NCBI GenBank assembly: GCA_050291745.1
Contig: JBNKKI010000120.1
Coordinates: 4,397-68,396 of the forward strand
DNA from: Gammaproteobacteria bacterium
GTDB taxonomy: Bacteria; Pseudomonadota; Gammaproteobacteria; GCA-001735895
Direction of reading: 5' to 3'
DNA length: 64,000 bases
The notes under the pieces are model-generated. The model did not search any database and had not been told where the DNA came from. It was given only the letters and a program-made list of their open reading frames with translations. Made by a program: the position numbers and the translations under genes. This document shows, in pieces, positions 3,607 through 35,431 of the stretch; position 1 is the stretch's first letter; every line of letters begins with the position of its first letter.

Positions 3607-4040
3607 CTCGCGATCCTCCGGTGAAAACGTGTCAGGTACTCCTCGACAAAACGGCAGGCGGCCTGCCGGTCCGAGCAGAAGTAGACGGGGACACCGAAGT
3701 CGACGACGATGGAGGCGACCGTTCCGATCAGCGCATGCGGGTGGGCATCGCTGCGGTAGCGGCCATCGACCAGATCGCGAAAGTTGCACTCGACAACCAC
3801 GCAGGCGGATTCGTAGGCGGAGAGCTTTTCCAGCTCGCGGTGAAACCGCTTTCGCCCCCGGATGACGGTGGAGACGAAATCCGTCAGGGATTTGCGCTCC
3901 ACCGCCACCCGTTCCTCAAGGCCGACCAGTGAGTAATCACCGGCGGGCAGCGCCTTGCGAACCGCCGAAACCTTGTCACTATCGAAGCTGTAGGGCTCCT
4001 GTTCGCGGGTGTCGACGACAACGGTGATCCGGTCCATCAT
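3558..4040 (-). CDS. ERCC4 (XPF/Mus81-type) nuclease-domain protein
   Basis: 160 aa containing VVVDTREQ...AGDY...ERKSLTDF, which fits the ERCC4 GDx(n)ERKx3D nuclease signature. The start overlaps the stop of the upstream gene (ATGA). The 3' end overlaps the predicted helicase start by about 49 nt. Confidence 0.5.
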   Translation of the reverse strand: MMDRITVVVDTREQEPYSFDSDKVSAVRKALPAGDYSLVGLEERVAVERKSLTDFVSTVIRGRKRFHRELEKLSAYESACVVVECNFRDLVDGRYRSDAHPHALIGTVASIVVDFGVPVYFCSDRQAACRFVEEYLTRFHRRIARCQKEMRVTRRDSGEE

Positions 4041-4513: not shown

Positions 4514-4525
4514 GGTTGGATCTCC

Positions 4526-5296: not shown

Positions 5297-5322
5297 GGCT
5301 TCGTCTCCTTATGGTTGGGATT

Positions 5323-6339
5323 TCAAAACACCGGAGCGGCGTCTTCACCGGCTCCGTCCCGCAGCTCTTCGTGCGGGGCGATCCGTTGGAAATGGTTTTC
5401 GATGACGTTGGGGTTGCCGCCCGAGCGGCAGAGCTGGAAGTAGGCGCAGGGCCGTCCGTACTGGAAGCAGTAGCTGGTGTTGCGGTAGAAGGTGTCGCGC
5501 CGACGGGCGTCGAGCATGGCCTTGGAGAGTTCCCACAGCTCCGCCCGCAGTTCCTCGAACTGGTCGCGGGAGATGTAGAGCACCTCGCGGTGGAACATGC
5601 CCGGCTCGAGGTACTTCTCCTGAAGCCGCTGCTGGAAGGTGTCGTCGTCCTCCGGCAGCTTGCGCTTGGCGCTGCTCTTGCCGGTTTTCGACTTGGCGAT
5701 CAGCTCCGCCCGGCGGGCCTCGAATTCGGCTTCGGTTTCACCCTTGCCCTGGCGCAGCTTGGCCTTGACCAGGACGTTGTAGATGATGCCGCTGACCGTG
5801 ATGCCGAGGGTCTGCTCCAGGTACCAGGCGTAGAGGATGATCTGGAAGTCGGTCCACAGCCGTTCCAGGTAACTGGCGTCGATCTGTGAAGCGGTTTTGT
5901 GTTCCAGCAGGAAATACTGGCCATCTTGACGGACGATGCCGTCCACCTTTCCGGCGAGAATGAAACTGCGCGAGGTCGCGCCGGTCGCCGGGTTGACGAT
6001 GGGACCTTCGAAGGTCTTCTCGAGCGCGACGACCTCGAACGCTTCAGCCGGGTAGTGTTCCGCATAGGCGCTCATCATGGCTCGGGCGAGATGCCAGTCG
6101 GCCTGTTGATGATCGTCCTGCGCCCGGTTCGGATAGGTCCGGTCGATGTGGTCGAGGACCTTGGCCAGATCTCGCTCGCCGTGCCAGCACTCCAGGCAGT
6201 CGTGAATGACCGAGCCGAAGGCCAGATTGGGGTCGCGCTCGAGCGGCACCAGCTCGTCGATGTAGCGCCACTTGCAGGCCATGCGGCAGTTGCGGAACAG
6301 CCGCCACATGGAATAGGTGGTGGTCATCAGCTCGCTCAT
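5323..6339 (-). CDS. PD-(D/E)XK family exonuclease, Cas4/RecB-like, with a C-terminal Cys cluster
   Basis: 338 aa with a D...E.K-type core (GKVDGI..., YFLLEHKTAS) and a C-terminal cysteine cluster (CFQYGRPCAYFQLC), typical of Cas4/AddB-like iron-sulfur nucleases. Confidence 0.6.
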   Translation of the reverse strand: MSELMTTTYSMWRLFRNCRMACKWRYIDELVPLERDPNLAFGSVIHDCLECWHGERDLAKVLDHIDRTYPNRAQDDHQQADWHLARAMMSAYAEHYPAEAFEVVALEKTFEGPIVNPATGATSRSFILAGKVDGIVRQDGQYFLLEHKTASQIDASYLERLWTDFQIILYAWYLEQTLGITVSGIIYNVLVKAKLRQGKGETEAEFEARRAELIAKSKTGKSSAKRKLPEDDDTFQQRLQEKYLEPGMFHREVLYISRDQFEELRAELWELSKAMLDARRRDTFYRNTSYCFQYGRPCAYFQLCRSGGNPNVIENHFQRIAPHEELRDGAGEDAAPVF

Positions 6340-6674
6340 ACCGCCACCCCCGCTGTAGCGGCGGTGGGCGCTGCGCGATGCTTGGAGGCGCAGGCGCAGC
6401 CAGACGGCTGGGTTCGTTCGATCAGGACCGAGCGTTCGCCGTACTCCTTGGTGGCGAAACCGGTGAAGATGCGGGCGAGGTCGCTGCCGACATCGGTGGA
6501 GGCGTCGATCACGCAGGTGCGTCGGGCCTTGTCCAAATTGAACCGGCTCTCCATCCGCACACGGGAACGGCCATGCAGGCTTTCGACGGCCAGCATCGCC
6601 AGCATGAAAGTGTCTTCCAGTTCCTGGGCCGGGACCGACTCGTCAAAACGGTACTTGTAGGTGTCGTGAGTCAT
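6336..6674 (-). CDS. Hypothetical small protein (112 aa)
   Basis: The internal start MTHDTYKYRFDE at 6674 has AGGAG about 8 nt upstream. The longer 191-aa ORF (up to 6911) would overlap the sigma-factor gene and is rejected. The stop overlaps the exonuclease start (ATGA-type coupling). Confidence 0.4.
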   Translation of the reverse strand: MTHDTYKYRFDESVPAQELEDTFMLAMLAVESLHGRSRVRMESRFNLDKARRTCVIDASTDVGSDLARIFTGFATKEYGERSVLIERTQPSGCACASKHRAAPTAATAGVAV

Positions 6675-6778
6675 GGTTGAACTCCTCTTTTGTTCAGGTT
6701 CTGATTTCCGAGGCCCCGGATAGCCGCACCATGCGGCACGGTGCTTACTTACCGGAGCCGGGGCTGATGCGTCGGAGA

Positions 6779-7363
6779 TCACAGGTAGTCGGTCAGGCCA
6801 GCCTCGCTGAAAGCCTCCCGCAGCTTGCTCAGCCGGTCGTAGAGGGTGGTTCTGGGAATGCCCATCTCCCGGGCGATTTCGGCCATGGTGCTGTCGTGCA
6901 GGCGCACGCACAGATCCCGGAGCTCTTCCGGCAGCGAGGTGATGGCCCGGTCGAGATCCATGCGGATCTCATGGGCGAGAAGCTCCCTTGTCTCGCGGGT
7001 GCCGCTTCCCAGAGAGCCTTCGCTGTCCAGGAAGTCGATTCGCTCGGTGGTGTCGCCTTCACCGTTGTCGAGGGGTTCGTTGAGTGAGGTTTGGCAGAGC
7101 CGCCAGTCCCGGCATTGGGCGAACCGGGCCTCCAGAATGGTGGAGATGTGACGTTCGACGATCCGGGCCATGAAGGTGGTCTTCTTGGCCTTGGCGGGAT
7201 TGAAATGCCGCATCCGCTGCAGCAGATCGATCATCAGTTCCTGTTCGAGGTCGGGTCTGTCGTCCTCGGTGAATCCGGCTTTGCCTACGAGTTGACGTGC
7301 TTTGTGCCGAATGAGGTCGGCGGCATAATTGTCGATACCGTCGTAAGAATTCTGTGAAACCAT
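6779..7363 (-). CDS. Sigma-70 family (ECF-like) RNA polymerase sigma factor
   Basis: 194 aa with a region-2-like segment (DLIRHKARQLVGKAGFTEDDRPDLEQELMIDLLQRM) and a region-4 HTH (STMAEIAREMGIPRTTLYDRLSKLRE). GAGGAGG precedes the start. Confidence 0.65.
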   Translation of the reverse strand: MVSQNSYDGIDNYAADLIRHKARQLVGKAGFTEDDRPDLEQELMIDLLQRMRHFNPAKAKKTTFMARIVERHISTILEARFAQCRDWRLCQTSLNEPLDNGEGDTTERIDFLDSEGSLGSGTRETRELLAHEIRMDLDRAITSLPEELRDLCVRLHDSTMAEIAREMGIPRTTLYDRLSKLREAFSEAGLTDYL

Positions 7364-7558
7364 CGGGGCCTCCTCGGAGCGAGGAGGAGGTCCGCGTGGG
7401 TGTCGGCACGGGCCAGATCACAGGACAAAGCTGTCGCGTGGGCGAAGGGGTCGCAGGTACGCCGCCAATTGCCGTATTCGGCTCGGCGACACCCACAACA
7501 GCCTCCGCCATGCGTCCAGCTTGTTGTCCAGTGTCTAAGGGTTCAGGTCGTTACGTGT

Positions 7559-7885
7559 TCAGGCTGCCCGTTCCTCGATGCGCATCAGGAACGGGAGACC
7601 GTGCTTGATCTCGAGCAGGCAGACTTTTCCGCTGCCCATCTGCGCGAGGTGCTCCAGCAGCGCCACGACCTCTTGCTTGAGGATGAAGTCATCCTGGTCG
7701 CGCTCGGGCCGGGGACCACTCTGTCCGCCCAGCTTGATCTCGCGCTCGATGACCGTGTCAGGGGTGAGTTCCGGCTCGCCGTCGCGGACCGGAATGTTAG
7801 TGATGCGGCCGAAGTTGATGTCCTGCATCAGCTCGATGAGTCGCCGCTTCGGTGGGGTGAGGTGTGCTTTGTTGATTTGTGCCAC
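7559..7885 (-). CDS. Hypothetical protein (108 aa)
   Basis: Its GC3-rich codon usage is consistent with the island genes. It lies between the terminator of the QueC-like operon and the sigma-factor gene. No motif was recognised. Confidence 0.45.
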   Translation of the reverse strand: MAQINKAHLTPPKRRLIELMQDINFGRITNIPVRDGEPELTPDTVIEREIKLGGQSGPRPERDQDDFILKQEVVALLEHLAQMGSGKVCLLEIKHGLPFLMRIEERAA

Positions 7886-7942
7886 TGCCAGTCTCCTTGT
7901 TCGGAAGTTCTGGCACGCCCGGTGGCCAACCCTGTGCTGACC

Positions 7943-7995
7943 AATAAAAAACGCCGGATCGCGCCTTCATTGGGGAAGGCGCTACATCCGGCGTT
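7943..7995 (-). terminator. Rho-independent terminator downstream of the 700-aa QueC-like gene
   Basis: The minus strand reads aacgccggatgtagcgccttccccaatgaaggcgcgatccggcg followed by ttttttatt. This is a long GC stem (cgccggat/atccggcg, with inner gcgcctt/aaggcgc) followed by a U-run. Confidence 0.6.
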
Positions 7996-8058
7996 GCAAT
8001 GGCTACATTTGGCGTAGCGGAAATTTTTTTTAGTTTTTTCTTCCTGGGTGGTCCCGGG

Positions 8059-10161
8059 TCATTCGTTGACTATCGGGCGGACCTCCCAAACGATCTCCTC
8101 TTCGGTCCGGTAGACCGGTTCGTTGCCGCACTTGATGGACTCCTTCAAGTGGGCAGCCAGCGGCTTATCGTACTTCTCCAGATACTTGATGGCCCGGTTC
8201 ACGGCGTTCCGGAAGGCGTCGCGGATGTTCTTCCGTTTGTCGTTGGATTTCCGGAGTTTGCCACCCAGACCAACCGCCTCGTTGATTGCGGCTGTGATCT
8301 GGGTCATTTCGTCCTCAAGCCGCTGGATTTCGGCATCGTTGTTTTCTGCCCGGGCTTCTTCAATCTCTCGGAGAAGCTCGTGAGCCGTCTCCCGGTATTG
8401 CTCGACGGCCTTGCGGTCGGCAACGAAGCCGGTATCACCCAACGGAACCCCCTGGGTGACCTGAAAACCTTCGTCGGTTTCATTGGAGTTCAGGACCGCG
8501 TTGCAGCTATCGATGGCAAACCCGCAGACGATCTCGTAGACCGAGGTTTCTTTGTTGGGCCTCGCCAGGAGGAAGTTGATGTACTCGGCTCCTTTGTCGA
8601 CACCCGTCACGAGCACCTCGGCGTTGCCGTTAAAGCGTGCGGCCCAGACACCCCCGCGCTTCCTGAAATAGTTGTCCGGCTGCTTCTGCTCGACCGGAAT
8701 GGCGGGGACTGAGATCACCGATCCCGATTCATAGACCGTCCGAAGCAAGCAGTCTCCTGGCAAGGTGCGCTGGCGGATGGCCGTGATGTTGCGGGCGACC
8801 ATGGTGTCCATCGCTTCGCAGACCTCCTTGGCGTGGCGCTTGTAAAGGTCATAGACCTTCTGGGCCACGCTTCCGGGGTTCCCATTCAGGTAGCGGAAGA
8901 CCCGACTCACTTCGCTGAATCGAGCGATAAACTGGGTGATGTCATCCTGATCACGGACCTGGTTGGCACGCTCCAGATACGCGGCCGCCATGATTTTGTC
9001 TTCGTCCTTGCTTCGGCTTTGGGTGAAGATGTCGGCCTTGTAGGCATCGACAGGATCATATTGATCGGCCTTCGCCGCAATAACGGCAAAGCGCCGGTCG
9101 ATGCACTGCGAGCAGGTGCCGCAGTGGGTATGGTGATTGGTCATCTCCCAGGTGTGCGTGCAGGTGGTCGATGCCGCGATCATCTCCTGGCATCCGGCTT
9201 TGGTGATGACCCCGACGACGTCAGCCTTGGTTTTCCAGATGTAGGGATTTTCAATGGTGAATGGTTCGCCAGCCACCAGACTGATGATTTCCTGGAAGCC
9301 TCGGATTACCCTGGGATGGGTGGTGCGCGTTGCTCGGCCGCCGACGACCTGGGCGCAGACCGGCAGATTCAGACTGATGACGCCGTTCTCGTAGAATCGG
9401 ACGCTCTTCAGGTTGATCATTTTTGCGATGGTCGCCCCGATGGACACATAGAGGAAGGAGCGGCTCCGCTGGGTGTACTCGTAGTTCAGCCCCTTGTTCT
9501 TGTTGACGCGAACTCCGATGTGAAGGGGAGCGTTTTCACCGGCCTTGTCGGCAATCATCTTTTCCAGGCGGCGGTGGCGTTTATTGAGCTTCGGGGTTGA
9601 CTTGTGTGTCACCAGGACGACCCGGTGCTTTTCGTTCAACACCTCGTCGATAGCTCCTGCCAGCGAATCCAGCCCGCCTGAAAACATCACCACCTGTTCC
9701 GGATAACCGAGAAGACGCCCGTCATCGTTGAAGTCCAGATAGCCCTGGAATGCCTGAGCCTCTTTCAGCTTGGTGAATTCAAAGTGGTAGCTGTCATCAG
9801 ACAGGAACCCAAGCGTCGAGCACAGGGCCTGCTGAATCTCCTCACCATTCCAGAAGTCCGGGTTCCGGACCGGAATGATGAAATGCAGATTTCTCCGCCA
9901 ACCATGACCAAAGGAATCAACGTCATCGGCTCCACGGGGAATGGCCTGGTCGGCGCTGTACACGTAGGTGGCAATTTCGAGCAGATCCTGGAAGGAATCC
10001 GGCACGTCCTTGCTCATCTTTTTGTGGATGTCTTCGATGCGTAGGGTGATCTTGTCCGGCCCATCCTTGCCCCACAAACGCAGGCGCAAATCCCGATCCG
10101 GGTTCTCCTCGATTCCGCTGGTCGGTGCGTTTCCGCAGATGATGTAACGCTTATCTTGCAT
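8059..10161 (-). CDS. 700-aa three-domain protein: unknown N-terminal domain, QueC-like PP-loop ATPase core, and unknown C-terminal coiled-coil-rich domain
   Basis: It carries a PP-loop signature VVMFSGGLDSLAGAIDEVL (SGGxDS), and downstream a QueC-type zinc motif CTHTWEMTNHHTHCGTCSQCIDRRFA (C-x(n)-CGxCxxCxxR). Roughly 190 aa at the N-terminus and 280 aa at the C-terminus have no recognisable motif. The start overlaps the upstream gene by 11 nt (translational coupling). Confidence 0.7.
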   Translation of the reverse strand: MQDKRYIICGNAPTSGIEENPDRDLRLRLWGKDGPDKITLRIEDIHKKMSKDVPDSFQDLLEIATYVYSADQAIPRGADDVDSFGHGWRRNLHFIIPVRNPDFWNGEEIQQALCSTLGFLSDDSYHFEFTKLKEAQAFQGYLDFNDDGRLLGYPEQVVMFSGGLDSLAGAIDEVLNEKHRVVLVTHKSTPKLNKRHRRLEKMIADKAGENAPLHIGVRVNKNKGLNYEYTQRSRSFLYVSIGATIAKMINLKSVRFYENGVISLNLPVCAQVVGGRATRTTHPRVIRGFQEIISLVAGEPFTIENPYIWKTKADVVGVITKAGCQEMIAASTTCTHTWEMTNHHTHCGTCSQCIDRRFAVIAAKADQYDPVDAYKADIFTQSRSKDEDKIMAAAYLERANQVRDQDDITQFIARFSEVSRVFRYLNGNPGSVAQKVYDLYKRHAKEVCEAMDTMVARNITAIRQRTLPGDCLLRTVYESGSVISVPAIPVEQKQPDNYFRKRGGVWAARFNGNAEVLVTGVDKGAEYINFLLARPNKETSVYEIVCGFAIDSCNAVLNSNETDEGFQVTQGVPLGDTGFVADRKAVEQYRETAHELLREIEEARAENNDAEIQRLEDEMTQITAAINEAVGLGGKLRKSNDKRKNIRDAFRNAVNRAIKYLEKYDKPLAAHLKESIKCGNEPVYRTEEEIVWEVRPIVNE

Positions 10162-10939
10162 CGGCTCGCGCTCCTTCTTTCAATTCGTCCTTCATTTTCT
10201 TCAGCGCATAGGAGGCGAAGCCGTTGGACGACTCCCGGGAGATGTCACCGCCTTCTTCGTATTTGTGCTTGGAAAACCAATCCGCCGAAAACTGTTCGAC
10301 GATCAGGGATGCTTCTTTGCAGTGCGTGGTCAGGGCTTTCTCGAATTGTCCCATTTCATTCATGGTGGCAAAGCGCTGGCCTTCGCCCAGATGGGTCGCC
10401 AGCGTTTTTGACAGGAAATAATTCATGCTCTCGTTGGTCAGCTTGGCGAAGAACGTGCGGGACAACTCGCCGAACTCCCGTTTTTTCCCGAGCGACGCCA
10501 ATGCTGCCTGAACGTCACTGGCGTCTGGCGTAAACAAGGAAGGCAGCTTGGGAGAGATGTGTTCGACCAATGCTCCAACCAAGGCCCGCTGCGACATCTC
10601 ACCCAAGTCAGAGCGACTACCGTTGGACTCGAGCTTCCGATCCATTGCCTCTGCAACAGCGGCGGCTACGTCGGGCAATGAGGTGTCCTGTGGCAGATTG
10701 ATGCCTACCGACTGCAGGTGATCGTTGAAGTTGTCCTTCTTGGCGGCAATGGCAAGCTGGGTCATCAGCCATACCGCCTCGGTAAACCCCTCATCGTTGA
10801 GCACAAATGAGAAGGCCTTGTCAGCCGCCCGTATTGTGGCGTTTGCGATCTGGGACACGTCGGCACCGGCCGTGATCAGGCCGACCACCTCTTTCCATGC
10901 CCTCGACCTTGGAAGGCTCCCAAGTCTGACGTGCCCCAT
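10151..10939 (-). CDS. Hypothetical 262-aa all-helical protein, operon partner of the QueC-like protein
   Basis: Its codon usage is consistent with coding sequence. It lies 33 nt downstream of the wHTH gene and overlaps the QueC-like gene start. No catalytic motif was recognised. Confidence 0.55.
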   Translation of the reverse strand: MGHVRLGSLPRSRAWKEVVGLITAGADVSQIANATIRAADKAFSFVLNDEGFTEAVWLMTQLAIAAKKDNFNDHLQSVGINLPQDTSLPDVAAAVAEAMDRKLESNGSRSDLGEMSQRALVGALVEHISPKLPSLFTPDASDVQAALASLGKKREFGELSRTFFAKLTNESMNYFLSKTLATHLGEGQRFATMNEMGQFEKALTTHCKEASLIVEQFSADWFSKHKYEEGGDISRESSNGFASYALKKMKDELKEGARADAR

Positions 10940-10972
10940 GTCGATCTCCTTATTGTTCGCGACCCTGCATCG

Positions 10973-11206
10973 TTATTCGGGCCTCCTGATGACGACGATG
11001 CTTCGGGCCTTACGAGCTTCTTTCTTCAAATAGCCTTTACGGACCAGTTGAGCGATCTGCTCGTGGGCGCTCGCGTGACTGATACCGAGGACTTCCGACA
11101 ATTCTTTCACCGTTGGCGGCAACCCCTTTTCATCGATGATTTGGCAAATGACCCTCAGCGTCCTGGCCTGCGGGTCGGTTATTTCCGATAGCTTTTTCTT
11201 TCCCAT
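10973..11206 (-). CDS. Stand-alone LexA-like winged-helix DNA-binding protein (77 aa, no peptidase domain)
   Basis: The sequence MGKKKLSEITDPQARTLRVICQIIDEKGLPPTVKELSEVLGISHASAHEQIAQLVRKGYLKK resembles the LexA N-terminal DNA-binding domain (LexA has ...[32 protein letters not shown]). GGAG lies about 8 nt upstream of the ATG. Confidence 0.6.
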   Translation of the reverse strand: MGKKKLSEITDPQARTLRVICQIIDEKGLPPTVKELSEVLGISHASAHEQIAQLVRKGYLKKEARKARSIVVIRRPE

Positions 11207-11262
11207 GGCGATTGCTCCGTGTCATGGCCACTGAGCGGATTAGGCCCATCTTATGGTTAAAA

Positions 11263-11291
11263 AATATACGACCTGATGAATATCAGGTCAA
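11263..11291 (-). promoter_or_regulatory. Near-consensus sigma-70 promoter (TTGACC, 17-bp spacer, TATATT) with an embedded perfect palindrome GACCTGATgaatATCAGGTC (11270..11289), a putative operator
   Basis: The minus strand reads TTGACCtgatattcatcaggtcgTATATT, about 55 nt upstream of the wHTH start codon. The 8-4-8 perfect inverted repeat overlaps the -35 element and the spacer, which is the expected position for an autoregulatory operator. Confidence 0.55.
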
Positions 11292-11779
11292 TCAAAAAAA
11301 CAGGACTTTTCATCTGATTCCGTCATCTTGCACGTCCCTCCGGTAGGTAACGAACGCAAGTCCGGTTAAAGCCGGGCACAACCAGATAACCGACCAGAGG
11401 CGGAGCTGAGGCGGTTGTGGGTGCCATCGAACGCGCATCCCGACCCCCACCGTTTTCTGGCATCCACACCATCCAGTCCCCCGGTCCCACCGGAGGTGTT
11501 CGATGTTGGATGTACAGGAAATGAATGATGGGCCGGGGACGGATGACCTTGGCGAAAACGGCAAACCCGGCCGCCTGTCGGGTGAGGCGAGGCTCCAGTC
11601 AGCCGCCTCCATTCTGGCCACTGCGATCCTGCGCCGAAAGGCCAAAAAAGCATGTGGAGGCAGTGAGTTAGAGATTTTCGAAGATTCTTCCCCTGTGCTC
11701 AGAGAAGGACTTGATTCATTGCCGGAACAGAGCATTCATTCATGACAACTCGTCCGGAAACCAAAATAAGGAGTTGAAA

Positions 11780-12304
11780 ATGAATGAGTTACAAAATGCC
11801 GCCACGGGCGGCAAGAATCAGGACCGAACCCGAAACTCGGTCCTTCGGCAGATGGCCCTGCTGCAATCCATGTCCCTGGAGCAGCTCCGGGAAAAATGGC
11901 TCGACCTCTACGGCGAAGAGCCGCCCCAGTACAAGAAACAATTCCTCATCAAGCGGCTGGCCTATCGCATCCAGGAGCTTTTCTACGGTGGGCTGTCCGA
12001 GCAGACCAAGGTCCATCTCCAGCAGGCCGCCAAGGAGGACCCGGTCGCAACTGTCAATCGACGCATCCCAGAGGAGCGGAAATCAAACGAGGCGATCCTG
12101 CCCGGGACCAGACTGGTGCGGATATGGAACGACCGGCGCTATGAGGTGATCGTTCTTGCCGATGGCTACGAGTTCGAAGGCCGCACCTTCCGGTCGCTCA
12201 GCGCGGTGGCCAGGGAGATCACCGGGACGCGCTGGAACGGGAAAGTCTTTTTCGGACTGAAGAAGGTTTACGGCAGAAAAGCCGATGGAGGTTCGGATGC
12301 TTGA
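11780..12304 (+). CDS. DUF2924-like serine-recombinase accessory protein
   Basis: Translation starts at MNELQNAATGG (11780), after an AAGGAG Shine-Dalgarno sequence. The C-terminus (RLVRIWNDRRYEVIVLADGYEFEGRTFRSLSAVAREITGTRWNGKVFFGL) resembles the DUF2924 family that typically precedes large serine recombinases. The gene overlaps the recombinase start by 20 nt. Confidence 0.55.
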   Translation: MNELQNAATGGKNQDRTRNSVLRQMALLQSMSLEQLREKWLDLYGEEPPQYKKQFLIKRLAYRIQELFYGGLSEQTKVHLQQAAKEDPVATVNRRIPEERKSNEAILPGTRLVRIWNDRRYEVIVLADGYEFEGRTFRSLSAVAREITGTRWNGKVFFGLKKVYGRKADGGSDA

Positions 12305-13883
12305 TAACAGCAATGTCGCGCCGGGCAAAAACAAGACCCTGCGCTGTGCCATCTACACCCGCAAGAGCCACGAAGAAGGTCTCGAACAGGAGTTCAACTC
12401 GTTGGATGCGCAACGGGAATCGGCGGAACACTATATCGAAGCCCAGAGGATGCGTGGCTGGACGGCTCTGCCGGATCGCTACGACGATGGGGGTTTCTCG
12501 GGCGGGAACATGGAGCGTCCGGGGCTGCGCCGCCTGCTGGCGGACATCGACGCCGGGAAGATCGATGTGATCGTCGTCTACAAGGTCGACCGGCTGTCCC
12601 GCTCGCTGCTGGACTTCATGAAGATGATCGACCTCTTCAACGAGAAGGGTGTCAGCTTCGTCTCGGTCACCCAGCACTTCAGCACCACCGATCCCACCGG
12701 CCGGATGTTTCTCGGCATCCTGATCACCTTCGCCCAGTACGAGCGGGAGGTCATCGCCGAACGCATCCGGGACAAGGTGGCGGCTGCCAAGCGCCGGGGG
12801 AAATACTGCGGCGGCGTACCCATCCTCGGATACGACGTCAACCGGGACAACAAGAAGCTGCTGGTCAACCCAGATGAAGCCAGGACGGTGCAGTACATTT
12901 TCCGCCGGTTCATCCAGATCGGCTCGGCCAAGAAGCTGGGCCAGGAATTGAACGAACAGGGTTACCGCACCAAGGCCTGGACCACCAAGAAAGGCAAGGT
13001 GCGCGAGGGCTCCGAATGGAACACCGCCCACATCTATCGACTGCTAAACAACCGGATCTATATCGGCGAGATCGCCCACAAGGACCGCAGCTACCCCGGT
13101 GAGCACGAAGGGATTATCGACCGGGCGACCTGGGACAAGGTTCAGGCCATCCTGGAGGACAACAAACCGGTCAAGGTTTCCATGGCCAGAACCAAAATGG
13201 TCGCCCCGCTGAAAGGCGTCATCCGATGCGGCCACTGCGGATGCGCGATGGGACCGACCTACGCCCGCAAGAACGGCCGCCACTACACCTATTACATCTG
13301 CCAGAAAGACAGCAAGCGGACCGTGAGCCGGTGCCCGCTCAAACGGATTCCCGCCGGGGACATCGAGCAGGCGGTAATCGAGCAGTTGAGCGCGGTGTTT
13401 CGCACACCGACGCTGGTGGCCAAGACTTACTTCGCGGCCCGGGACATCGAGCAGGCAGAGCGGGAGCGGTTGTTCAAGCAGAAAGCCCAGCTCGAGATGG
13501 AGCTGTCGCAGGCACGGGAGCAGGCACTTGAACTGATGAAACCTGGCAACGATCAGCCGGGCAAGACCGAGATGCTGACTACGGTCAATCGCCAGGCGGT
13601 CGAGCTCACGAAACAACTGACCCATGTGAGCGAGCGATGCAGAGCCTACCAGGGGAACAGCATCACGGAGCAGGATGTGTCGGAGGCCTTCCAGAATGTC
13701 GAGGGCTTCTGGGAAGATCTTTTCCCGGTGGAGCGAAACCGGCTCATCCGCCTCCTGGTGGATAAGGTCGAGATCCGCGAGACCGGAATTGACATGGAGC
13801 TGCGCACCAACGGGCTGACAACGCTCATCGCCGAGCTGGCTGGTCTGGCATGCGAAGTCACCGAACGGAGGGCAAGCCGATGA
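12285..13883 (+). CDS. Large serine recombinase (integrase): resolvase catalytic domain, recombinase domain and zinc ribbon
   Basis: The N-terminal resolvase domain reads LRCAIYTRKSHEEGLEQEFNSLDAQRESAEHYIEAQ...IDVIVVYKVDRLSRSLLDFMKMIDLFNEKGVSFVSVTQ (Ser nucleophile in YTRKS). A recombinase domain and a zinc ribbon (RCGHCGCAMGPTYARKNGRHYTYYICQ...RCPLKRIPA) follow, then a C-terminal coiled-coil. The length is 532 aa. Confidence 0.85.
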   Translation: MEVRMLDNSNVAPGKNKTLRCAIYTRKSHEEGLEQEFNSLDAQRESAEHYIEAQRMRGWTALPDRYDDGGFSGGNMERPGLRRLLADIDAGKIDVIVVYKVDRLSRSLLDFMKMIDLFNEKGVSFVSVTQHFSTTDPTGRMFLGILITFAQYEREVIAERIRDKVAAAKRRGKYCGGVPILGYDVNRDNKKLLVNPDEARTVQYIFRRFIQIGSAKKLGQELNEQGYRTKAWTTKKGKVREGSEWNTAHIYRLLNNRIYIGEIAHKDRSYPGEHEGIIDRATWDKVQAILEDNKPVKVSMARTKMVAPLKGVIRCGHCGCAMGPTYARKNGRHYTYYICQKDSKRTVSRCPLKRIPAGDIEQAVIEQLSAVFRTPTLVAKTYFAARDIEQAERERLFKQKAQLEMELSQAREQALELMKPGNDQPGKTEMLTTVNRQAVELTKQLTHVSERCRAYQGNSITEQDVSEAFQNVEGFWEDLFPVERNRLIRLLVDKVEIRETGIDMELRTNGLTTLIAELAGLACEVTERRASR

Positions 13884-14302
13884 AAATGAAGCCGACCATT
13901 ACCGTTGCCGACAACGGCAACCTGCAGATCCACATCCCGATGCTGATCCGGCGCATGCGCGGCCGCAAGACGGTCATCGCTCCCCAGGCCCTGGATGGAG
14001 AAATCACCGGAGCGCAGGAACCGGTGCAGTCTGCCATCCTCCAGGCGCTGGGAAGAGCCTTTTCCTGGGCCGACATCCTCGAATCCGGCCAGATCAAGTC
14101 CATCAGCGAGCTTGCCCGTACCCTTGACGTCGATGGCTCGTATGTGGCCCGCATTCTCAAGCTGACGACCCTGGCCCCCGACATCATCGAAGCCCTGATC
14201 AACGGCGAGGAACCCAACGGGCTCTCGCTGGCCAAGCTGACCCAGACCTTCCCCGAGGACTGGGCCGAGCAGCGCAGCCAGTTCGGCTTCGCCACCGACT
14301 GA
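13880..14302 (+). CDS. HTH-containing hypothetical protein, the third gene of the recombinase module
   Basis: The start MKMKPTITV overlaps the recombinase stop (ATGA). A putative HTH is SISELARTLDVDGSYVARILKLTTL. A terminator follows. Confidence 0.5.
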   Translation: MKMKPTITVADNGNLQIHIPMLIRRMRGRKTVIAPQALDGEITGAQEPVQSAILQALGRAFSWADILESGQIKSISELARTLDVDGSYVARILKLTTLAPDIIEALINGEEPNGLSLAKLTQTFPEDWAEQRSQFGFATD

Positions 14303-14327
14303 CGACCGGACCGGAGACCACCAAAGA

Positions 14328-14354
14328 GAGCCGACCATCAGCGTCGGCTTTTTT
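14328..14354 (+). terminator. Rho-independent terminator after the recombinase module
   Basis: A gccgac-catcagc-gtcggc hairpin is followed by tttttt. Confidence 0.55.
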
Positions 14355-14665
14355 ACTTTAGGGGGCAGGAAGCCGGAGTTGACCGCGCTTCTTTTCGTGG
14401 CCGAGGCGGGCGATTTCGAAAAAAACGTCCGGTTGCGGCATCGAACGATGACCTAAGACAACCGCCCAAAATGGCAATCAGCCGCAAACCCATATCAATC
14501 AAGGATGTAGCTTTCCGGACGCGCTTCGGACTTCGTCCGGAGAAAACAGAGAATCAGGGGCCAAACAGAGAAAGAAAGGCGGGAGGATGGGGAGAATCGA
14601 TGGTGCGGAGAGGTGCTTTGGAAAGATATGAAACGGGCGCAAACCCTTTAGAAACAAGGGGAAAA

Positions 14666-14721
14666 AGAAAACCCGCCTACCCAGAGAATCACTCTGGAGA
14701 GACGGGTTGTCTTTTTTTAAA
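14666..14721 (-). terminator. Putative ssrA terminator (bidirectional hairpin) immediately downstream of the tmRNA CCA end
   Basis: The minus strand reads ...CCAtttaaaaaaagacaacccgtctctccagagtgattctctgggtaggcgggttttctttttcc. It contains the stem aacccgtct/aggcgggtt with a nested ccagag/ctctgg hairpin, then a U-rich tract. On the plus strand the same hairpin is followed by T7. Confidence 0.45.
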
Positions 14722-15097
14722 TGGTGGAGACGGGGGGAATCGAACCCCCGTCCGCCAGTCCTCTGCCATTGGCTCTACATGTTTATTCTGAACTTTAATT
14801 TAACTGCTTGCTACCCGTCAGACTAAGAAAACAATCAGCGATTTCGGTACTTTTTTAGTGCTTCGGCCCCGAACAAGCTTCCATCACGATTCTATGAGAG
14901 CGATGCCTGAATGTTCCCGAAGGAACCTGGACGCATAGACACGGCTCCAGTCAGACAGCATTCTACCGGTTATTAAGCGGCGAGTGCGTAGTTGTCGTCG
15001 TTTGCAACTATATATTTGCAGAAGATTTAACGAGTTTTTCTACATTCTCGACATGCACCTCAGGTTTCAATACCAACGTCGAAGCCGAGTCGTCCCC
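14722..15097 (-). ncRNA. ssrA: tmRNA (SsrA), about 376 nt, tag peptide ANDDNYALAA
   Basis: The minus strand begins GGGGACGACTCGGCTTCGACG... (compare E. coli GGGGCTGATTCTGGATTCGACG). It contains the tag reading frame GCAAACGACGACAACTACGCACTCGCCGCTTAATAA, giving ANDDNYALAA then two stops (plus-strand coordinates 14970..15005). It ends ...GGACGGGGGTTCGATTCCCCCCGTCTCCACCA at 14722. Confidence 0.9.
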
Positions 15098-15278
15098 AGA
15101 GATTCGATAGTATAATCCATTTATCTGGATTTATACTACCATTTACGCAATATTTGACAGTTTCTTGCTGTTTTAGTTCTGATATTGTTGCTGATGAATG
15201 GTGCTTTCCGTTATTATTCCGCTCGCTATTATTAAGCCTTTGCACCTTTGCCATTCATCTTACTTATTAATCTATCCC

Positions 15279-19559: not shown

Positions 19560-20045
19560 ATGAAAAAAATCATCACTGCTGCTGCAATTTTAGTCGCTGC
19601 TACATCTGCTCAAGCTTCCTGGGATATGCCTTTTTTTGGTAACAATAACAGTAATAATGGTAATGGTTACGGTAATTACTATGGAAACGGTGCTTCTAAC
19701 GGAACAGCTCAGGGCGACTACCGTGGAGAAGGACGTGGTCAGGGAACTGGACATGGAAAAGGTAGTGGAAATGCTGATGGCGAAGCAACTTTCTCAATGA
19801 GCTTCAAAGGTCGTGCTAAAGGTGATATGGATACAAATATGGATGCCAATTCTGACTGGAATGGTAATACTGCAGCAAATGGAAATGGTTACTACAACGC
19901 TGATGCAAACGGAAATGGTTACAGTAACTACTACGCAAACAACAATGGTTACGGAAGCAACCCATATTATGGTTATGTGCCTCAGCAGGCTCCTGTTGCT
20001 CCAGTAGCACCTACAGCTACACCTGCACAGGAAACAGCTAAGTAA
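19560..20045 (+). CDS. Secreted low-complexity Gly/Asn/Tyr-rich protein
   Basis: The signal peptide is MKKIITAAAILVAATSAQA. It is followed by repetitive GNGYGNYYGNG / NGNGYYNADANGNGYSNYYANNNGYGSNPYYGY sequence and a Pro/Ala/Val tail. A 10-bp perfect stem-loop (19180..19215) precedes it downstream of purL. Confidence 0.55.
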   Translation: MKKIITAAAILVAATSAQASWDMPFFGNNNSNNGNGYGNYYGNGASNGTAQGDYRGEGRGQGTGHGKGSGNADGEATFSMSFKGRAKGDMDTNMDANSDWNGNTAANGNGYYNADANGNGYSNYYANNNGYGSNPYYGYVPQQAPVAPVAPTATPAQETAK

Positions 20046-20203
20046 TTTACTAACTGGTTGTGTTTCCTGAAGAGTATATCTCTTCAGGGAACTAACTCAG
20101 ATCGTTTTTCTCTCCTTTTTAAACGATCTGGGTTAGTTTTTTCTAACCAGTTTTATCCTCCTGATAATTTTTTGACGGGCTTAAGCCCGTCTTTTTTTTG
20201 CAC

Positions 20204-20550
20204 ATGGATGTGCTTATGCTGGGACGACTGCATGGATGCAGGAGGTAGAATAACGCAGGAGCAGTTATCGAGGCCATGGATGGCAACGAGCAGTATTCTA
20301 ACCGAAGCCTCATAGACACTATCGAAAATAGGAAGCATAATCTTTTTAAAGGAATTGCTCCTTGCATTCCCAGCACTCCCACCATCCCTGGCGGTCGCAC
20401 AGGATGTGCTTATGCTGGGAGGCCATGGATGGCAACGAGCAGTATTCTAACCGAAGCCTCATAGACACTATCGAAAATAGGAAGCATCATCTTTTTAAAG
20501 GAATTGCTCCTTGCATTCCCGGCACTCTCGCTATTCTTAATCCAATTGCC
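20204..20550. repeat. Tandem direct repeat: two copies of a roughly 197-bp unit, the second carrying an internal deletion of about 47 bp
   Basis: gatgtgcttatgctggga...ggccatggatggcaacgagcagtattctaaccgaagcctcatagacactatcgaaaataggaagcat[a/c]atctttttaaaggaattgctccttgcattccc occurs twice, with copies starting near 20204 and 20401. Two overlapping ORFs in the track share MDGNEQYSNRSLIDTIENRKH as a by-product. Confidence 0.7.
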
Positions 20551-20604
20551 TGCTACTCTAAAGTAAGCCCTGATAAATAATTATCCTGGATTGCGTAGTT
20601 GAAC

Positions 20605-20837
20605 CTAGATTCTGCAGTTGACCGCTCGCAATAGAGATTAACCCACTGTTTCATAAACGATTACAATTGATGTGTATAATCACCCAATCGGTGAATCCCG
20701 CTACGAACTGAATTGTACATTTGAGGCGACCTATCTCTTCGTTGTAACGCCCTGGAATAGCTGGCTATTGCGCGTCGTTACGCCTTGATTTACACCACTT
20801 CAAACGCACAATCAACTCGTCCAACTGTGGATTCTAG
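20605..20837. mobile_element. MITE family 1, copy A (233 bp), with imperfect terminal inverted repeats cctagattcYRcagttg
   Basis: The left end is ctagattctgcagttgaccgctcgcaatagag and the right end is caactgtggattctag. It is about 90% identical to the copy at 40969..41202. The internal core is tgtataatcacccaatcggtgaatcccgctacgaactgaattg...cgtcgttacgccttgat.tacaccac.tcaaacgcaca. Its terminal CTAG supplies the TAG stop codon of the adjacent XRE gene. Confidence 0.7.
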
Positions 20838-21442
20838 GATTCTTCATGATTTTGCAATGTTTTAGCCAGATCAAGTAGTAAGGTTTTTGATTCTGCTTTC
20901 ATATTTGAAAATATCATCATGATTTCTCGCAAATCATCAGGGAAAAAATTACTTAAGCCATCGTTTTCGATATGCTGTTCATCCATCCAGCCATCTCTTT
21001 TTTCCAGAGATGCTTCCACTGAACTTGCCAGTTGGTCATCAATTTCCAGGAATGGATTATTGATATATTCAAATAATATTTTTCTGGGTAAATTAATACG
21101 AATAGTAAAATTAGTTAGCTCTGTTTCAGTTAAATTTTCAAGTATTTGGGCAAGATTCTGATGGCGGATCGCTTGCTTGTCTCTTTTTGTTGAGCGAATA
21201 CTGCCTATTCCAAAACTAATCCAGCATGGATTGGTTTCAGTTAATTTTGCGATCTGTTTTATATCCAGCGGATTAGGTAATGAAGTACCGTTTTCATAAT
21301 TTCCCAGGCGGCTTTCACTCCAACCATCTATAAGGCTGGTTAAAGATGACAGTGTTTTAAATCCAGCCATTTTTCGAGCCTGTCGAATTCTATTACCAAC
21401 GATTTTTTTAAATTCGACTAATTGTTCTGATTTATTTTTCAT
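20834..21442 (-). CDS. XRE-family HTH transcriptional regulator with a C-terminal domain of unknown function
   Basis: The N-terminal HTH_3-like segment is IVGNRIRQARKMAGFKTLSSLTSL...LGNYENGTSLPNPLDIKQIAKL. The protein is 202 aa. Confidence 0.6.
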   Translation of the reverse strand: MKNKSEQLVEFKKIVGNRIRQARKMAGFKTLSSLTSLIDGWSESRLGNYENGTSLPNPLDIKQIAKLTETNPCWISFGIGSIRSTKRDKQAIRHQNLAQILENLTETELTNFTIRINLPRKILFEYINNPFLEIDDQLASSVEASLEKRDGWMDEQHIENDGLSNFFPDDLREIMMIFSNMKAESKTLLLDLAKTLQNHEES

Positions 21443-21781
21443 CGATAAGTTATTGAGTTCTAAAGATTAATAATTGAATATTATCATCACAACAAGTTTC
21501 TTGTAAAATAAACTTGAAAACTTGTTATTTATGTTTATAATTTTTTTCAACTTAACTATTTATTTTTGGAGCCATAGCAATTCGATGAATATTTCTACTC
21601 AACATAATTTGATTTCAGGCCAGTCTATGACTGCGGCTGCAGAGTCATTATGTCCTGTAGTGATAACTTATTCGGTTTCAAATTTTATGTTTCAACTGGC
21701 ATGGTTATCCGTCATGGATTCTACATGTAAGTAGCTCTTGATAATTAATTATGAGGGCTGCTTGAAAAAGCGCCTTCTAAC

Positions 21782-21830
21782 AGAAAAAACCCGGGGTGCT
21801 TTTTAAAAGTACGTCGGGTTTTTTTTTGGG
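21782..21830. terminator. Bidirectional rho-independent terminator-like hairpin
   Basis: The sequence aaaaaacccggggtgctttttaaaagtacgtcgggttttttttt is a stem flanked by an A-run and a T-run. Confidence 0.4.
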
Positions 21831-21973
21831 TCGCAGTAAATCGAAGGAAGTTTAACAATAAACCAGTTGATAAGTACTGGTTCATCAGGAGTTTGATCAT
21901 GATTGATCACCAGTTTTTTTTGCAATGTAACATTCGGGGTAGACCTTCTCCAACGGATGATCAGGGAGGATTT

Positions 21974-22147
21974 ATGAATCATTATGTTCAGTTTGAAAAG
22001 GCAGTAAAGCGTATGAAGTTGCCGTTTATCAGAAAGAAGGCTAGTTCAGCTAATGCACTATGGTTCATCCGTAAAGGATTTTTGAGCAATCGGGAAGATC
22101 CTAAAGTGGTGGATGCGTTATATCACGCCCAGAAAATCGTAGACTAG
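21974..22147 (+). CDS. Hypothetical small protein (57 aa)
   Basis: ATG at 21974 is preceded by GGAGG (gggaggatttATG). The peptide is MNHYVQFEKAVKRMKLPFIRKKASSANALWFIRKGFLSNREDPKVVDALYHAQKIVD. The longer upstream extension is rejected. Confidence 0.3.
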   Translation: MNHYVQFEKAVKRMKLPFIRKKASSANALWFIRKGFLSNREDPKVVDALYHAQKIVD

Positions 22148-22246
22148 GAAGCCGCTAATTAACCAGCTGGATTCCAGGTTTTAAAATAGTAAAGGTAATA
22201 TATATGAATATTGAAATTCGTCATGCCGAGAAAGGTGATATTGAAC

Positions 22247-22556
22247 CTAAAAAAATCAGTTGACCGCTCCATTCTAGTAACAGGTTTCTGATTTTGAAGA
22301 AAATAGCTTCGATAGTTATGGTCACCCACTGGGTGAGTTACGCTACAACGTGAATGGCACGCTGTCCAACTGATCTTTTTAGGTTGATGAGTATAATCAC
22401 CCAATCGGTGAATCCCGCTCGAACTGAATTGCAGGTTTGAGGTGGCGTATCTCTTCGTTGCAACGCCCTGGAATAGCTGGCTATTCCGCATCGTTACGCC
22501 TTGATCTATACCACCTCAAACGCACAATCAACTCGTCCAACTGAGGATTCCAGGTT
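22247..22556. mobile_element. Composite or nested MITE: a family-2-type terminus (aaaaatcagttga) fused to family-1 sequence, an extra internal segment, then a full family-1 core
   Basis: It starts aaaaatcagttgaccgctcc, contains a second terminus-like caactgatcttttt, then gatgagtataatcacccaatcggtgaatcccgctcgaactgaattgcaggtttgaggtggcgtatctcttcgttgcaacgccctggaatagctggctattccgcatcgttacgccttgatctataccacctcaaacgcacaatcaactcgtccaactgaggattccagg. Confidence 0.55.
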
Positions 22557-24001
22557 CAATTATCTGTTCCACCTACTGTAATTTCATCTATTTTCAAAGT
22601 TGGCTGGCCAACACCGACCGGCAAAGACTGACCTTCTTTGCCACAGACACCGACTCCGGGATCCAGCTCAAGATCATTTCCCAGCATTGAAATCTTCTTC
22701 ATCACTTCAGGACCTGAACCTATCAATGTTGCACCCTTTAATGGTCGACCTAATTTACCATTTTCAATTTCATAAGCTTCAGACAGAGAAAACACAAAGC
22801 GCCCTGAAGTTATATCAACCTGACCACCACCAAAGTTAACGGCATAGATACCTTTTTTTACAGATTCAATAATTTCCTGTGGATCAGATTCACCAGGTAA
22901 CATATAGGTATTGGTCATGCGCGGAAGAGGCAGGTGAGCATAAGATTCTCTACGACCATTTGATGTTGATTGAGTCCCCATCAGACGAGCATTCATTTTA
23001 TCCAGCATATAACCTTTTAAAATTCCATTTTCAATCAATGTAGTTGATTCAGCTGCCACACCTTCATCATCAATTGTTAAAGAACCACGCCGGTTAGTCA
23101 GTGTACCATCATCGACCACAGTACAAAGCGGTGATGCTATCTGTTGTCCAAGGCTCGAGCTAAAAGCTGAGGTTCCCTTGCGATTAAAATCGCCTTCCAG
23201 TCCATGACCAACGGCTTCATGTAAAAGAACGCCAGGCCATCCTGAGCCTAGTACAACTGGCATTGTACCTGCCGGTGTAGGAATAGAAGTTAAATTCACT
23301 GAAGCCTGTCGCACCGCTTCTTTTGCATAATCAAAAGCAATATTAGTATCAAAAAAAGAATCATAATTATGCCTTCCACCGCCACCGGAAGTACCTTGCT
23401 CACGACGCCCTTTGTCATGCATAAGAACAGTTACATTAACTCGCACTAAAGGACGAATATCAGCAGCCAGTGTATTATCAGTTGCTGCAATCAGAATATG
23501 ATCAATACTGCCTGAAATAGAAATAATAACCTGCTCTATTCGATCATCCAGAGAACGGGTATATTTATCAAGTCGTTTCAACAAATCCACCTTATCATCG
23601 GCACTACGACTATCTATCGGATTTTGGGGTTGATACAACGCTTTCGGTGAAGCACCCTTTAATATCTGTGTTGCTGTTTTATTTTGTCCTAATCTGGCAA
23701 TTGAACTGGCATTTCTGGTAGCTGTTAACAAGGCAGGAAAACTCAGATCATCACTATAAGCAAATCCTGTTTTTTCGCCACTCATCGCTCGAATACCAAC
23801 ACCATTGTCTATATTGAATGAACCTTCTCGAATTATTCCATCATCCATTACCCAGGATTCATGCTGAGAAAGCTGAAAATAAAGATCTCCGGCATCAATT
23901 TGATGACTCTGTAATTGATCCAGAGTCTGGTTTATTTTATCCAGTGTTAATTCAGAAGGCTGAAGTATAACCTGATCAACCGTTGTTAAAATTGAGGTCA
24001 T
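22556..24001 (-). CDS. tldD: Metalloprotease TldD
   Basis: 481 aa, collinear with E. coli TldD over the whole length ([50 protein letters not shown] with the HExxxH motif, and a C-terminal [25 protein letters not shown]). Confidence 0.9.
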
Positions 24002-35071: not shown

Positions 35072-35213
35072 AGGTTTAAAAGTTAAATTATTATAGTCCT
35101 GATTTAATCTCAGACAATTCAGGTTTTCTAATACGGTAATCAGGATCAAAACCCTGTTAAACAGGAAAAGTCACCCTGAAATTTTGGCTAAAATGCTTTA
35201 TATAAAAGGCATA

Positions 35214-35431
35214 ATCCTGGAAAAATCAGTTGAGCGTGTAAAAGATGCGTAACAAATTGATGCGCCTGGTCTAAGTCATGGATGACTGTCGTTAGAGCAA
35301 TGCAGGAGCAATTGCCGAGAAATCAAAAACACCGTAGTCACCTGATTGGTGAAGAGTGTGTTTTTGATTTTATCAGCTGCATTAAGGTGTTACCTGGACT
35401 TTCATGATTCAACTAATTTTTCCAGGATAAT
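35214..35431. mobile_element. MITE family 2 copy, inverted relative to the 54171 copy, with terminal inverted repeats atcctggaaaaatYagttga
   Basis: The left end is atcctggaaaaatcagttgagcgtg and the right end is tcaactaatttttccaggat. The interior is the reverse complement of the 54171..54391 copy (for example gtcacctgattggtgaagagtgtgtttttgatttt). Confidence 0.65.

Follow-up and report, generated by a model that had tools for sequence, protein, structure and literature searches.

Miniature inverted-repeat elements of probable IS1380 parentage and a covarying, strand-specific hairpin in a gammaproteobacterial contig

Short inverted-repeat elements in the window

We analyzed a 64,000-nt stretch of a Gammaproteobacteria bacterium contig (JBNKKI010000120.1, positions 4,397 to 68,396, assembly GCA_050291745.1; hereafter the window), which carries a set of short elements, 138-236 bp in length and coding for nothing, that resemble miniature transposable elements with inverted repeats (MITEs). 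An initial annotation had described two related MITE families here, and every repeat that it listed was found within a few bases of where it had been placed; the two-family reading is supported. Every complete copy is bounded by terminal inverted repeats (TIRs) of ~20 nt with the form CCTAG (or CCTGG)-N6-CAGTTGA. The terminus pattern matched 18 times in the window compared with 5.6 expected, and none of 100 shuffles reached 18. Two types of terminus were distinguished, reading ...ATTCCGCAGTTGA in the F1 family and ...AAAAATCAGTTGA in the F2 family and in two further elements, S1 and S2.

F1 is represented by two full copies, 91% identical in alignment, and one incomplete copy, all on the plus strand. 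F1a (20604-20838, 235 bp) has its left TIR at 20604-20627 and its right TIR at 20819-20838, with a small hairpin (TCACCCAATCGGTGA) at 20680-20694 and a long hairpin at 20703-20820. The corresponding hairpins of F1b (40968-41203, 236 bp) are at 41044-41058 and 41067-41185. F1c (22384-22554) comprises only the 3´ 171 bp of F1, without the first ~61 nt, and has its small hairpin at 22397-22411 and its long hairpin at 22419-22536. The right end of all three copies adjoins the stop codon of a minus-strand gene: the right TIR of F1a contains the stop codon of a helix-turn-helix gene (20834-21442, assigned by Pfam), F1b ends 1 nt from the stop codon of lptE (41205-41696, LptE by Pfam), and F1c ends, at 22554, 1 nt from the stop codon of tldD. 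The initial annotation had already placed copies beside tldD and lptE, and both gene names held up when checked.

The two full 211-bp copies of F2, F2a (54176-54386, plus strand) and F2b (35216-35426, inverted, on the minus strand), are 90-92% identical. Both termini of F2a read CCTAGAAAAATCAGTTGA, and its small hairpin (54250-54264) tips a longer stem, while F2b has the CCTGG variant termini and a small hairpin at 35338-35352. F2c (58202-58329, plus strand) is the 5´ 128 bp of an F2 copy, with 94-95% identity, and ends after the small hairpin (58276-58290). S1 (22246-22383, plus strand) is a complete 138-bp MITE without the interior of the long hairpin; it has the F2-type termini CCTAAAAAAATCAGTTGA and CCTAAAAAGATCAGTTGG and a small hairpin at 22322-22336. 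S2 (40818-40959, minus strand), 8 bp upstream of F1b, is a degenerate 142-bp element in which both termini, CCCGGAAAAATCAGTTAA and GCTGGCAAAATCAGTTGA, are present. S2 had been taken for a partial F2 copy at 40823-40955, but its interior is not homologous to that of F2, with only 22 nt in common, and it is a separate element.

Target-site duplications

The initial annotation saw no obvious target-site duplications (TSDs), but we found perfect 5-bp TSDs at three of the four full copies in the window: ATCAT for F1b (40963-40967 and 41204-41208), TTGAA for F2a (54171-54175 and 54387-54391), and ATAAT for F2b (35211-35215 and 35427-35431). S1 has nearly matching flanks (TTGAA/TTGAT). Across loci, TSDs were perfect for 36/66 type-A pairs and 29/36 type-B pairs, and a further 15 and 6 pairs, respectively, matched at four of five positions; as a control, the next 5 nt outward matched in 0 cases for either type. 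The insertion target is W-T-N-A-W, with T2 and A4 invariant in 65/65 perfect TSDs, and duplication affects the 5 nt outside CCTAG.

The CTAG at both tips recalls the YTAR target of IS5-group elements, and the repeats might on this ground be MITEs of another transposon family, such as the IS5 group (CTAG duplication), IS630/mariner (TA) or Tn3 (5-bp TSD). Duplications of 5 bp are likewise made by TIMEs, the Tn3-derived inverted-repeat miniature elements (PMC4133298). We regard another family as very improbable, given that the duplicated bases lie outside CCTAG, that duplication of CTAG would require the target to be directly repeated, and that the termini are identical to those of insertion sequences encoding IS1380-type transposases, described below. 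The GGGG start of Tn3 repeats is also missing from the termini. An IS5-group MITE specifically was rejected, since the expected 4-bp YTAR/CTAG duplication is absent and 5 nt outside CCTAG are duplicated.

We also noted that each terminus has stops in two frames (TAG and TGA) within its first 18 nt, so that insertion at the 3´ end of a gene costs few residues. Among the ends of 46 copies, 27/92 lie within ~25 nt of the stop codon of an open reading frame (ORF) of at least 100 codons.

Probable parent insertion sequences of the IS1380 family

A search for insertion sequences (ISs) with CAGTTGA-type ends, which the initial annotation had proposed, was successful: ISs of 1628-1708 bp have termini identical to those of the MITEs across 16-20 nt. 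On a plasmid of Polaromonas sp. P1-6 (CP087967), a 1631-bp IS lies 356 bp from a 235-bp F1-type MITE. This IS has the ends CCTAGAAACGGCAGTTAGC and CCTATTTTCGGCAGTTAGC, a TTTAA/TTTAA TSD, and a gene for a 510-aa transposase that matches PF13701 and PF01609 and has IS1380 as its best family (NF033539, E 1.6e-45). The right terminus of the neighboring MITE has 16 nt identical to the end of this IS and 20 nt identical to the left inverted repeat (IRL) of a related IS, and full ISs with F1-like termini have 16-20 nt in common with an F1-type MITE. The type-A ISs sampled are 1628-1630 bp long, with the TSDs CTGAT, CTAAT and GTTAT. At loci with the F2 terminus we also found full ISs, 1687 and 1708 bp long and in one case with the TSD ATTAA, whose IRLs are 100% identical to both F2a termini across 18-19 nt and whose transposases are 44-48% identical to that of the Polaromonas IS. 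The terminus types of F1 and of F2, S1 and S2 correspond to two sub-clades of the IS family.

The parent transposases (~510-525 aa) are of the DDE type and score above the PF13701 gathering threshold, as does that of ISEcp1, an IS1380-family element; NF033539 is by far their best family, with E values of 1e-37 to 1e-46. More than 7900 homologues of the Polaromonas-type clade were found at E<=1e-10. The parent ISs have CCTAG/CCTAT ends, 5-bp TSDs and lengths of 1628-1708 bp; IS1380-family elements have ends that begin with CC, duplications of 4-5 bp and lengths of 1.55-2.07 kb. For IS1247, a 5-bp direct repeat has been described (PMC3281130).

We consider it likely that the window repeats are MITEs derived from, and mobilized in trans by, IS1380-family DDE transposases encoded outside the window. 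The initial annotation had attributed both MITE families to one transposase family encoded elsewhere, and this family is probably IS1380. Three observations weigh against this parentage. The parent transposases score 129-157 bits, compared with the curated NCBIfam cut-off of 180 for IS1380; F1a lacks a TSD (TTGAA/ATTCT); and no IS1380-type transposase is encoded in the window, so that mobilization in trans in the source organism is something that we infer. The low scores would fit a divergent branch of IS1380, to which the parent transposases appear to belong. Neither the ORFs of the 64-kb window nor a tblastn search of it with ISEcp1 TnpA gave an IS1380-like or other transposase, and none was found beside unpaired termini in 105 genome loci, where the ORFs are host genes and the ISEcp1 TnpA tblastn search again gave nothing. 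Searches of the literature for the terminus sequence and for IS1380 together with MITEs returned nothing on MITEs derived from IS1380 or on the present termini.

A small palindrome at a fixed offset

A second feature links the MITEs to the ISs. The palindrome TCACC-N5-GGTGA occurs at seven sites in the window, in F1, F2 and S1, where 0.46 strand-matches are expected, and always lies 75-77 nt from one end of the element. The same distance from the IRL, ~75 nt, was seen for ISEcp1, for three IS clades and for all the MITE families; in the type-B IS of locus L205 the palindrome starts at position 83. In the ISEcp1 copy of pCTX-M3 (locus L109, 132-148), TTCACCCATTGGGTGAA spans IS positions 75-91, upstream of the annotated start codon. 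In the type-A ISs, the transposase start codon is in the palindrome loop (TCACCnnATGGGTGA), just after a Shine-Dalgarno-like GGAGG, which suggests translational control at the IS left end.

The ORFs of the parent ISs start at or just upstream of the small palindrome and end in the right inverted repeat (IRR). Given the start codon in the loop and the ORF end in the IRR, the left ~97 nt of F1 equal the left end of the IS through the first few codons. The cis requirements for mobilization would then comprise the terminal repeat and the 75-nt left-end module. In the ISs at L111 (3092-4722), L116 (1090-2717) and L119 (1418-3047), which have this arrangement of start codon and ORF end, the transposase ORF sometimes stops with the TAG of the terminal CTAGG itself.

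Composite and remnant copies

The initial annotation described the copy beside tldD as nested or hybrid, beginning with an F2 terminus fused to F1 sequence. A nested arrangement is indeed seen, but the left part is not merely a fused terminus, since 22246-22383 is a complete element, S1, with both termini. The left terminus of S1 is identical at 16/16 positions to the IRR of the L205 IS, and over its first ~118 nt S1 aligns colinearly and ungapped with an F1 copy from a different genome, a match that takes in the small hairpin, CGCTAC and the base of the long stem. F1c begins at TTGAT, which is at once the right flank of S1 and F1 position 62-66. The composite at 22246-22554 therefore reads as a complete, hairpin-less S1 adjoining a 5´-truncated F1 copy. 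In the simplest history, S1 would have inserted into an F1 copy, the left part of which was then lost; it is also possible that the 309-bp composite, flanked by TTGAA/TTCAA, moved as a unit.

A short ORF start (MNIEIRHAEKGDIE...) at 22205-22264 enters S1 and has its stop codon in the S1 terminus; it may represent a gene truncated by insertion or deletion. A solo terminus, CCTGGATTGCGTAGTTGA, was found by pattern search with 2 mismatches at 20585-20602 on the plus strand. It adjoins F1a, with its TTGAA overlapping the left flank of that copy, and is a leftover of an older element.

Dispersal in other genomes

Given the proposal in the initial annotation that the copies be counted elsewhere, we scanned one genome per species for the F1 terminus and found at least 105 stretches of genome that contain it, most of them gamma- or betaproteobacterial, with carriers among Thiodiazotropha, Sedimenticola, Ectothiorhodospiraceae, Burkholderiales, Rhodoferax and Paraglaciecola. 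The matches listed also include one alphaproteobacterial and one verrucomicrobial metagenome-assembled genome (MAG), and across all the matches listed the spacing between termini was 233-242 bp in 40/64 pairs. The F2 terminus was present in at least 120 metagenome stretches; the matches listed fall into size classes of 161-165, 173-176, 209-211 (the size of F2) and 228-291 nt, together with tiny ones. These are dispersed repeats. We also observed tiny elements of 41-111 nt with perfect TSDs among loci L121-L240. A Caballeronia plasmid bears a GC-rich 234-bp F1-type copy; apart from this copy and the Polaromonas locus, none was found on plasmids, and there were no F1 matches in viral contigs.

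Copies in a related MAG have no flanks in common with the window. A TldD protein identical to that of the window is encoded on the MAG contig JBNKML010000158.1. This contig matches the window at 100% identity over 11.7 kb, as far as position 22274 within S1, and then diverges; the contig ends ~130 nt past this point in a different hairpin-bearing sequence (locus L001, 11728-11861). The divergence is an assembly break or chimera at a multi-copy repeat.

A covarying, strand-specific long hairpin

In F1, a hairpin of ~118 nt, kept to a length of 118-121 nt, takes the place of the transposase gene. When 43 F1-type copies were aligned, the termini, the small hairpin with CGCTAC, and two core words, GCGTTGC and CGCCTTGC, proved to be conserved. 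The stems between these conserved regions are wholly different across lineages yet complementary. A covariance model of the core (R1) gave 92 matches in 100 sources. In the R1 alignment, 83.9% of cells pair, compared with 35-44% when the partners are slid, and 42/46 pairs show double-sided changes. For a second model (R2), built on the strand antisense to the transposase, 89.9% of cells pair compared with 33-43% with slid partners, all 45 of 45 pairs covary through double-sided changes (922 cells), and tandem U.G/G.U pairs are conserved.

The copies in the window conform to both models. R1 scored 127 bits for F1b, 105 bits for F1a and, across the whole model despite the loss of the first ~61 nt, 90.5 bits for F1c. 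R2 scored 114, 91 and 82 bits, respectively, on the minus strand, compared with no more than 25 bits on the plus strand (25 for F1b and 12 for F1a).

This polarity was also evident in 27 representatives below 85% identity, counted with the two conserved wobble positions excluded. The transposase-sense strand has 62 A.C mismatches compared with 7 G.U pairs, so that the wobble pairs sit on the antisense strand, where the mismatches are G.U, G.A and A.A. The fold of the antisense strand is the more stable, by 15.7 kcal/mol on average, in 26/27 lineages (Wilcoxon 3e-8). GC skew in the hairpin is -0.16, in 22/22 representatives, and is not consistent across the unpaired 5´ region; that the skew is confined to the hairpin speaks against a general process of strand-biased mutation. 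Collectively, these data show a strand-specific fold that is kept by compensatory substitutions and appears to be under selection.

The initial annotation had considered that the repeats might belong to a known structured RNA family. A search of the whole window against Rfam 15 at the gathering score gave only a transfer-messenger RNA (tmRNA) match, and at E<=10 the only matches for F1a, F2a and two GC-rich F1 copies were far below threshold. Nor is the hairpin present in the parent ISs, where there is no space for one: R1 found none in eight IS loci, and the core words were absent from five ISs. The 210-nt right end of ISEcp1, considered as a source, folds no better than shuffles (z = -0.4).

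The module, with the core CAAGGCG ... GCAACGC, was also found by R2 in elements with other ends. At locus L211 (1040-1240) it lies between GGAAGCTCTGAT termini with a TTAA duplication and at L012 (3412-3574) again between GGAAGCTCTGAT termini; L056 has two copies (2420-2585 and 6665-6835) with two other kinds of long inverted ends; a 279-nt element at L031 (1044-1322) has two hairpin modules; and at L133 and L204 the module is combined with type-B IS1380 ends. It also occurs as long hairpins without recognizable IS1380 ends. It is possible, if rather doubtful, that the hairpin is an undescribed single-strand module recruited independently by several unrelated families of non-autonomous transposon across Proteobacteria. 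If so, it would either be an RNA element, carried by MITEs, to which a conserved host factor binds, or indicate that the mobilization of these DDE MITEs goes through a single-stranded DNA state with fixed polarity or has its timing set by one.

The same observations bear on whether the module itself is the primary unit, a free-standing structured RNA gene or an element like a REPIN (a hairpin built of repetitive extragenic palindromic (REP) sequences), moved by another enzyme and with the IS1380-type ends secondary. The occurrences with other termini (L211, L012, L056, L031) and without recognizable IS1380 ends speak for this, as does GTAGCG after the hairpin on the folding strand, REPs having a conserved GTAG. 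In F1, however, the ends directly adjoin the module, the 5-bp TSD is outside the IS1380-type ends, the total length is fixed at 233-242 bp, and the left 97 nt are IS-derived. Moreover, the GTAG is 3´ of the hairpin, compared with 5´ in REPs, and there is no Rfam family match. We therefore think it improbable that the module is primary.

What the hairpin might do

Hairpin-less relatives, namely S1 and the classes of 133-163 nt, also have TSDs, and the hairpin therefore appears dispensable for movement. We propose that it would be an accessory module under selection in its folded, single-stranded form, which improves the success of the MITE without being needed for mobilization itself.

Our preferred, though tentative, reading is that the hairpin acts as RNA in read-through transcripts, with an effect on processing, stability or insulation, by analogy with the ERIC (enterobacterial repetitive intergenic consensus) and Correia elements, for which an RNA-hairpin role in processing or mRNA stability has been shown. 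An insulating or stabilizing role of the copies at the RNA level is possible. Their suggested role as terminators is unsupported in its canonical form, as no T-run follows the hairpin in any copy; no hairpin with a T-run was found inside any copy in 20000-22800, where the real terminator (20174-20191) is outside the elements. The missing T-run counts against the RNA reading, as do three further points: no sigma-70-like promoter is conserved upstream of the hairpin, there is no orientation bias with respect to flanking ORFs (14 compared with 13 over 46 copies), and DNA hairpins likewise tolerate G.T and G.A mismatches best, so that the strand signal cannot separate RNA from single-stranded DNA. 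An internal sigma-70 promoter or terminator as the conserved function was rejected, neither being conserved. A read-through function in 3´ untranslated regions with fixed orientation was also rejected by the 14 to 13 split, from which it follows that the arrangement of all three window F1 copies is not general.

Much of this evidence would equally suit a hairpin that works as single-stranded DNA, folding on one exposed strand such as the lagging-strand template or a transposition intermediate, as attC sites, REP/REPIN elements and IS200/IS605 ends are read as folded single strands. Such a hairpin could stall a replication fork, join ends that are 236 bp apart, or bind a host or transposon protein. 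Strand-specific folding with tolerated G.T and G.A mismatches, the lack of a conserved promoter and T-run, the lack of bias relative to host transcription, and the presence of the same module in DNA-transposon derivatives with unrelated termini are all consistent with this explanation. Short type-B MITEs also agree with it: the commonest, of 163 nt, are whole-element palindromes (75+13+75) with the small motif at the apex (L156, 287-449; L192, 4538-4700), and one strand of these short elements folds 17-38 kcal/mol better. To our knowledge, however, IS1380 transposases, which are DDE enzymes, have no single-stranded intermediate, and the parent ISs transpose without the hairpin. Resident copies show no GC-skew bias (22 compared with 29), by which a lagging-strand orientation was rejected, and RNA motifs are the more usual setting for conserved tandem U.G/G.U pairs and for purine-rich internal loops. 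On balance, we view action as single-stranded DNA as a possibility that is somewhat doubtful.

The 163-nt type-B MITEs look as if they came from snap-back copying of the IS left end, which raises the further explanation that the long hairpin is a functionless palindrome, formed by snap-back copying at the origin of the MITE, with arms kept complementary by template switching (quasipalindrome correction). Template switching transfers a change from one arm to the other and would thus mimic covariation. Against this, the non-palindromic core (CAAGGCG ... GCAACGC) and the bulges are conserved and not erased, the polarity is the same in 26/27 diverged lineages, the skew is confined to the hairpin, the module is conserved within elements of unrelated termini, and the length is held at 118-121 nt. 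A functionless palindrome is thus unlikely, and a role as RNA in read-through transcripts remains the reading that we prefer.

Other features of the window

Between the canonical terminator at 20174-20191 and F1a, the window has a tandem duplication of 149 bp, whose copies at 20270-20385 and 20419-20534 are 96-98% identical. Kinship of F2 with this repeat was considered and rejected, as the similarity is not significant, and neither is any to the other MITEs. GC content is 0.55-0.64 over the first ~14 kb of the window, compared with 0.32-0.47 for the remainder. At the boundary, within window positions 1-15100, are an ORF for a large serine recombinase (12285-13883, plus strand) and the tmRNA gene (14722-15097, minus strand). 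This part of the window has the look of a GC-rich island inserted at ssrA, or it might be an assembly chimera.

Significance and comparison with known systems

MITEs as a kind and IS1380 as the parent family are already known. What goes beyond a new member is the small hairpin at a fixed offset, which includes ISEcp1, the W-T-N-A-W target and, above all, the covarying, strand-specific module found across unrelated ends. Resistance genes of clinical importance are moved by members of the IS1380 family such as ISEcp1, elements whose cis requirements and mechanism are poorly known. As natural deletion mutants, the MITEs point to a minimal left end, made up of the terminal repeat with the small hairpin 75 nt in, as well as to the W-T-N-A-W target. 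Since the long hairpin is covarying, strand-specific, widespread, outside Rfam and common to different ends, it is a candidate, and one that can be tested, for a new motif that functions as RNA or as single-stranded DNA. The elements also break metagenome assemblies, as seen for the MAG contig of the same organism that diverges inside a copy, and should be masked in annotation.

Among the closest known systems is ISEcp1, which has the IRL CCTAGATTCTACGT and makes 5-bp duplications; this IRL was confirmed at 100% identity in 3651 plasmids. It begins with CCTAGATTCT, a sequence that the F1 terminus also has as its first 10 nt, and the ends start with CC. Like the window elements, ISEcp1 makes 5-bp AT-rich duplications, and like their full-length relatives, it encodes a PF13701 DDE transposase. 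Its TCACCC-N3-GGGTGA palindrome, at 75-91 from the IRL, has the same offset as in the MITEs. In contrast, the window elements are non-coding and only 138-236 bp long, their closest autonomous relatives score below the NCBIfam IS1380 cut-off, and ISEcp1 lacks the long hairpin of F1.

The Correia elements of Neisseria and ERIC elements of Enterobacteriaceae resemble the window elements in being short, TIR-bounded, intergenic and often beside stop codons, and they form long hairpins when transcribed, as the window elements would. They differ in their termini and duplications, and their hairpin is formed mainly from the two ends, whereas here it is a separate internal module with a conserved core that covaries and is strongly strand-specific; an effect at the RNA level would be by analogy. 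TIMEs are likewise non-autonomous, with a 5-bp duplication and the possibility of mosaics with other elements, but have 38-bp Tn3 repeats unrelated to the window termini (PMC4133298), whereas the parent here is an IS1380-type IS.

Two systems with single-strand folds resemble the F1 hairpin. REP and REPIN elements, mobilized by RAYTs (REP-associated tyrosine transposases), are likewise long hairpins (~100 nt) dispersed between proteobacterial genes, with structure kept more than sequence and read on one strand. They lack a TIR and TSD from a DDE enzyme and have GTAG 5´ of each REP, unlike the elements here, which have a TIR and TSD and GTAG 3´ of the hairpin; no RAYT link was seen here, though no search aimed at RAYT linkage was made. 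Integron attC sites are also imperfect palindromes that are conserved in structure and folded as a single strand of one polarity, a resemblance that arises from the CAGTTGA repeat. Here, however, the GTTRRRY-like and RYYYAAC-like boxes come in the opposite order, and no integrase context was seen.

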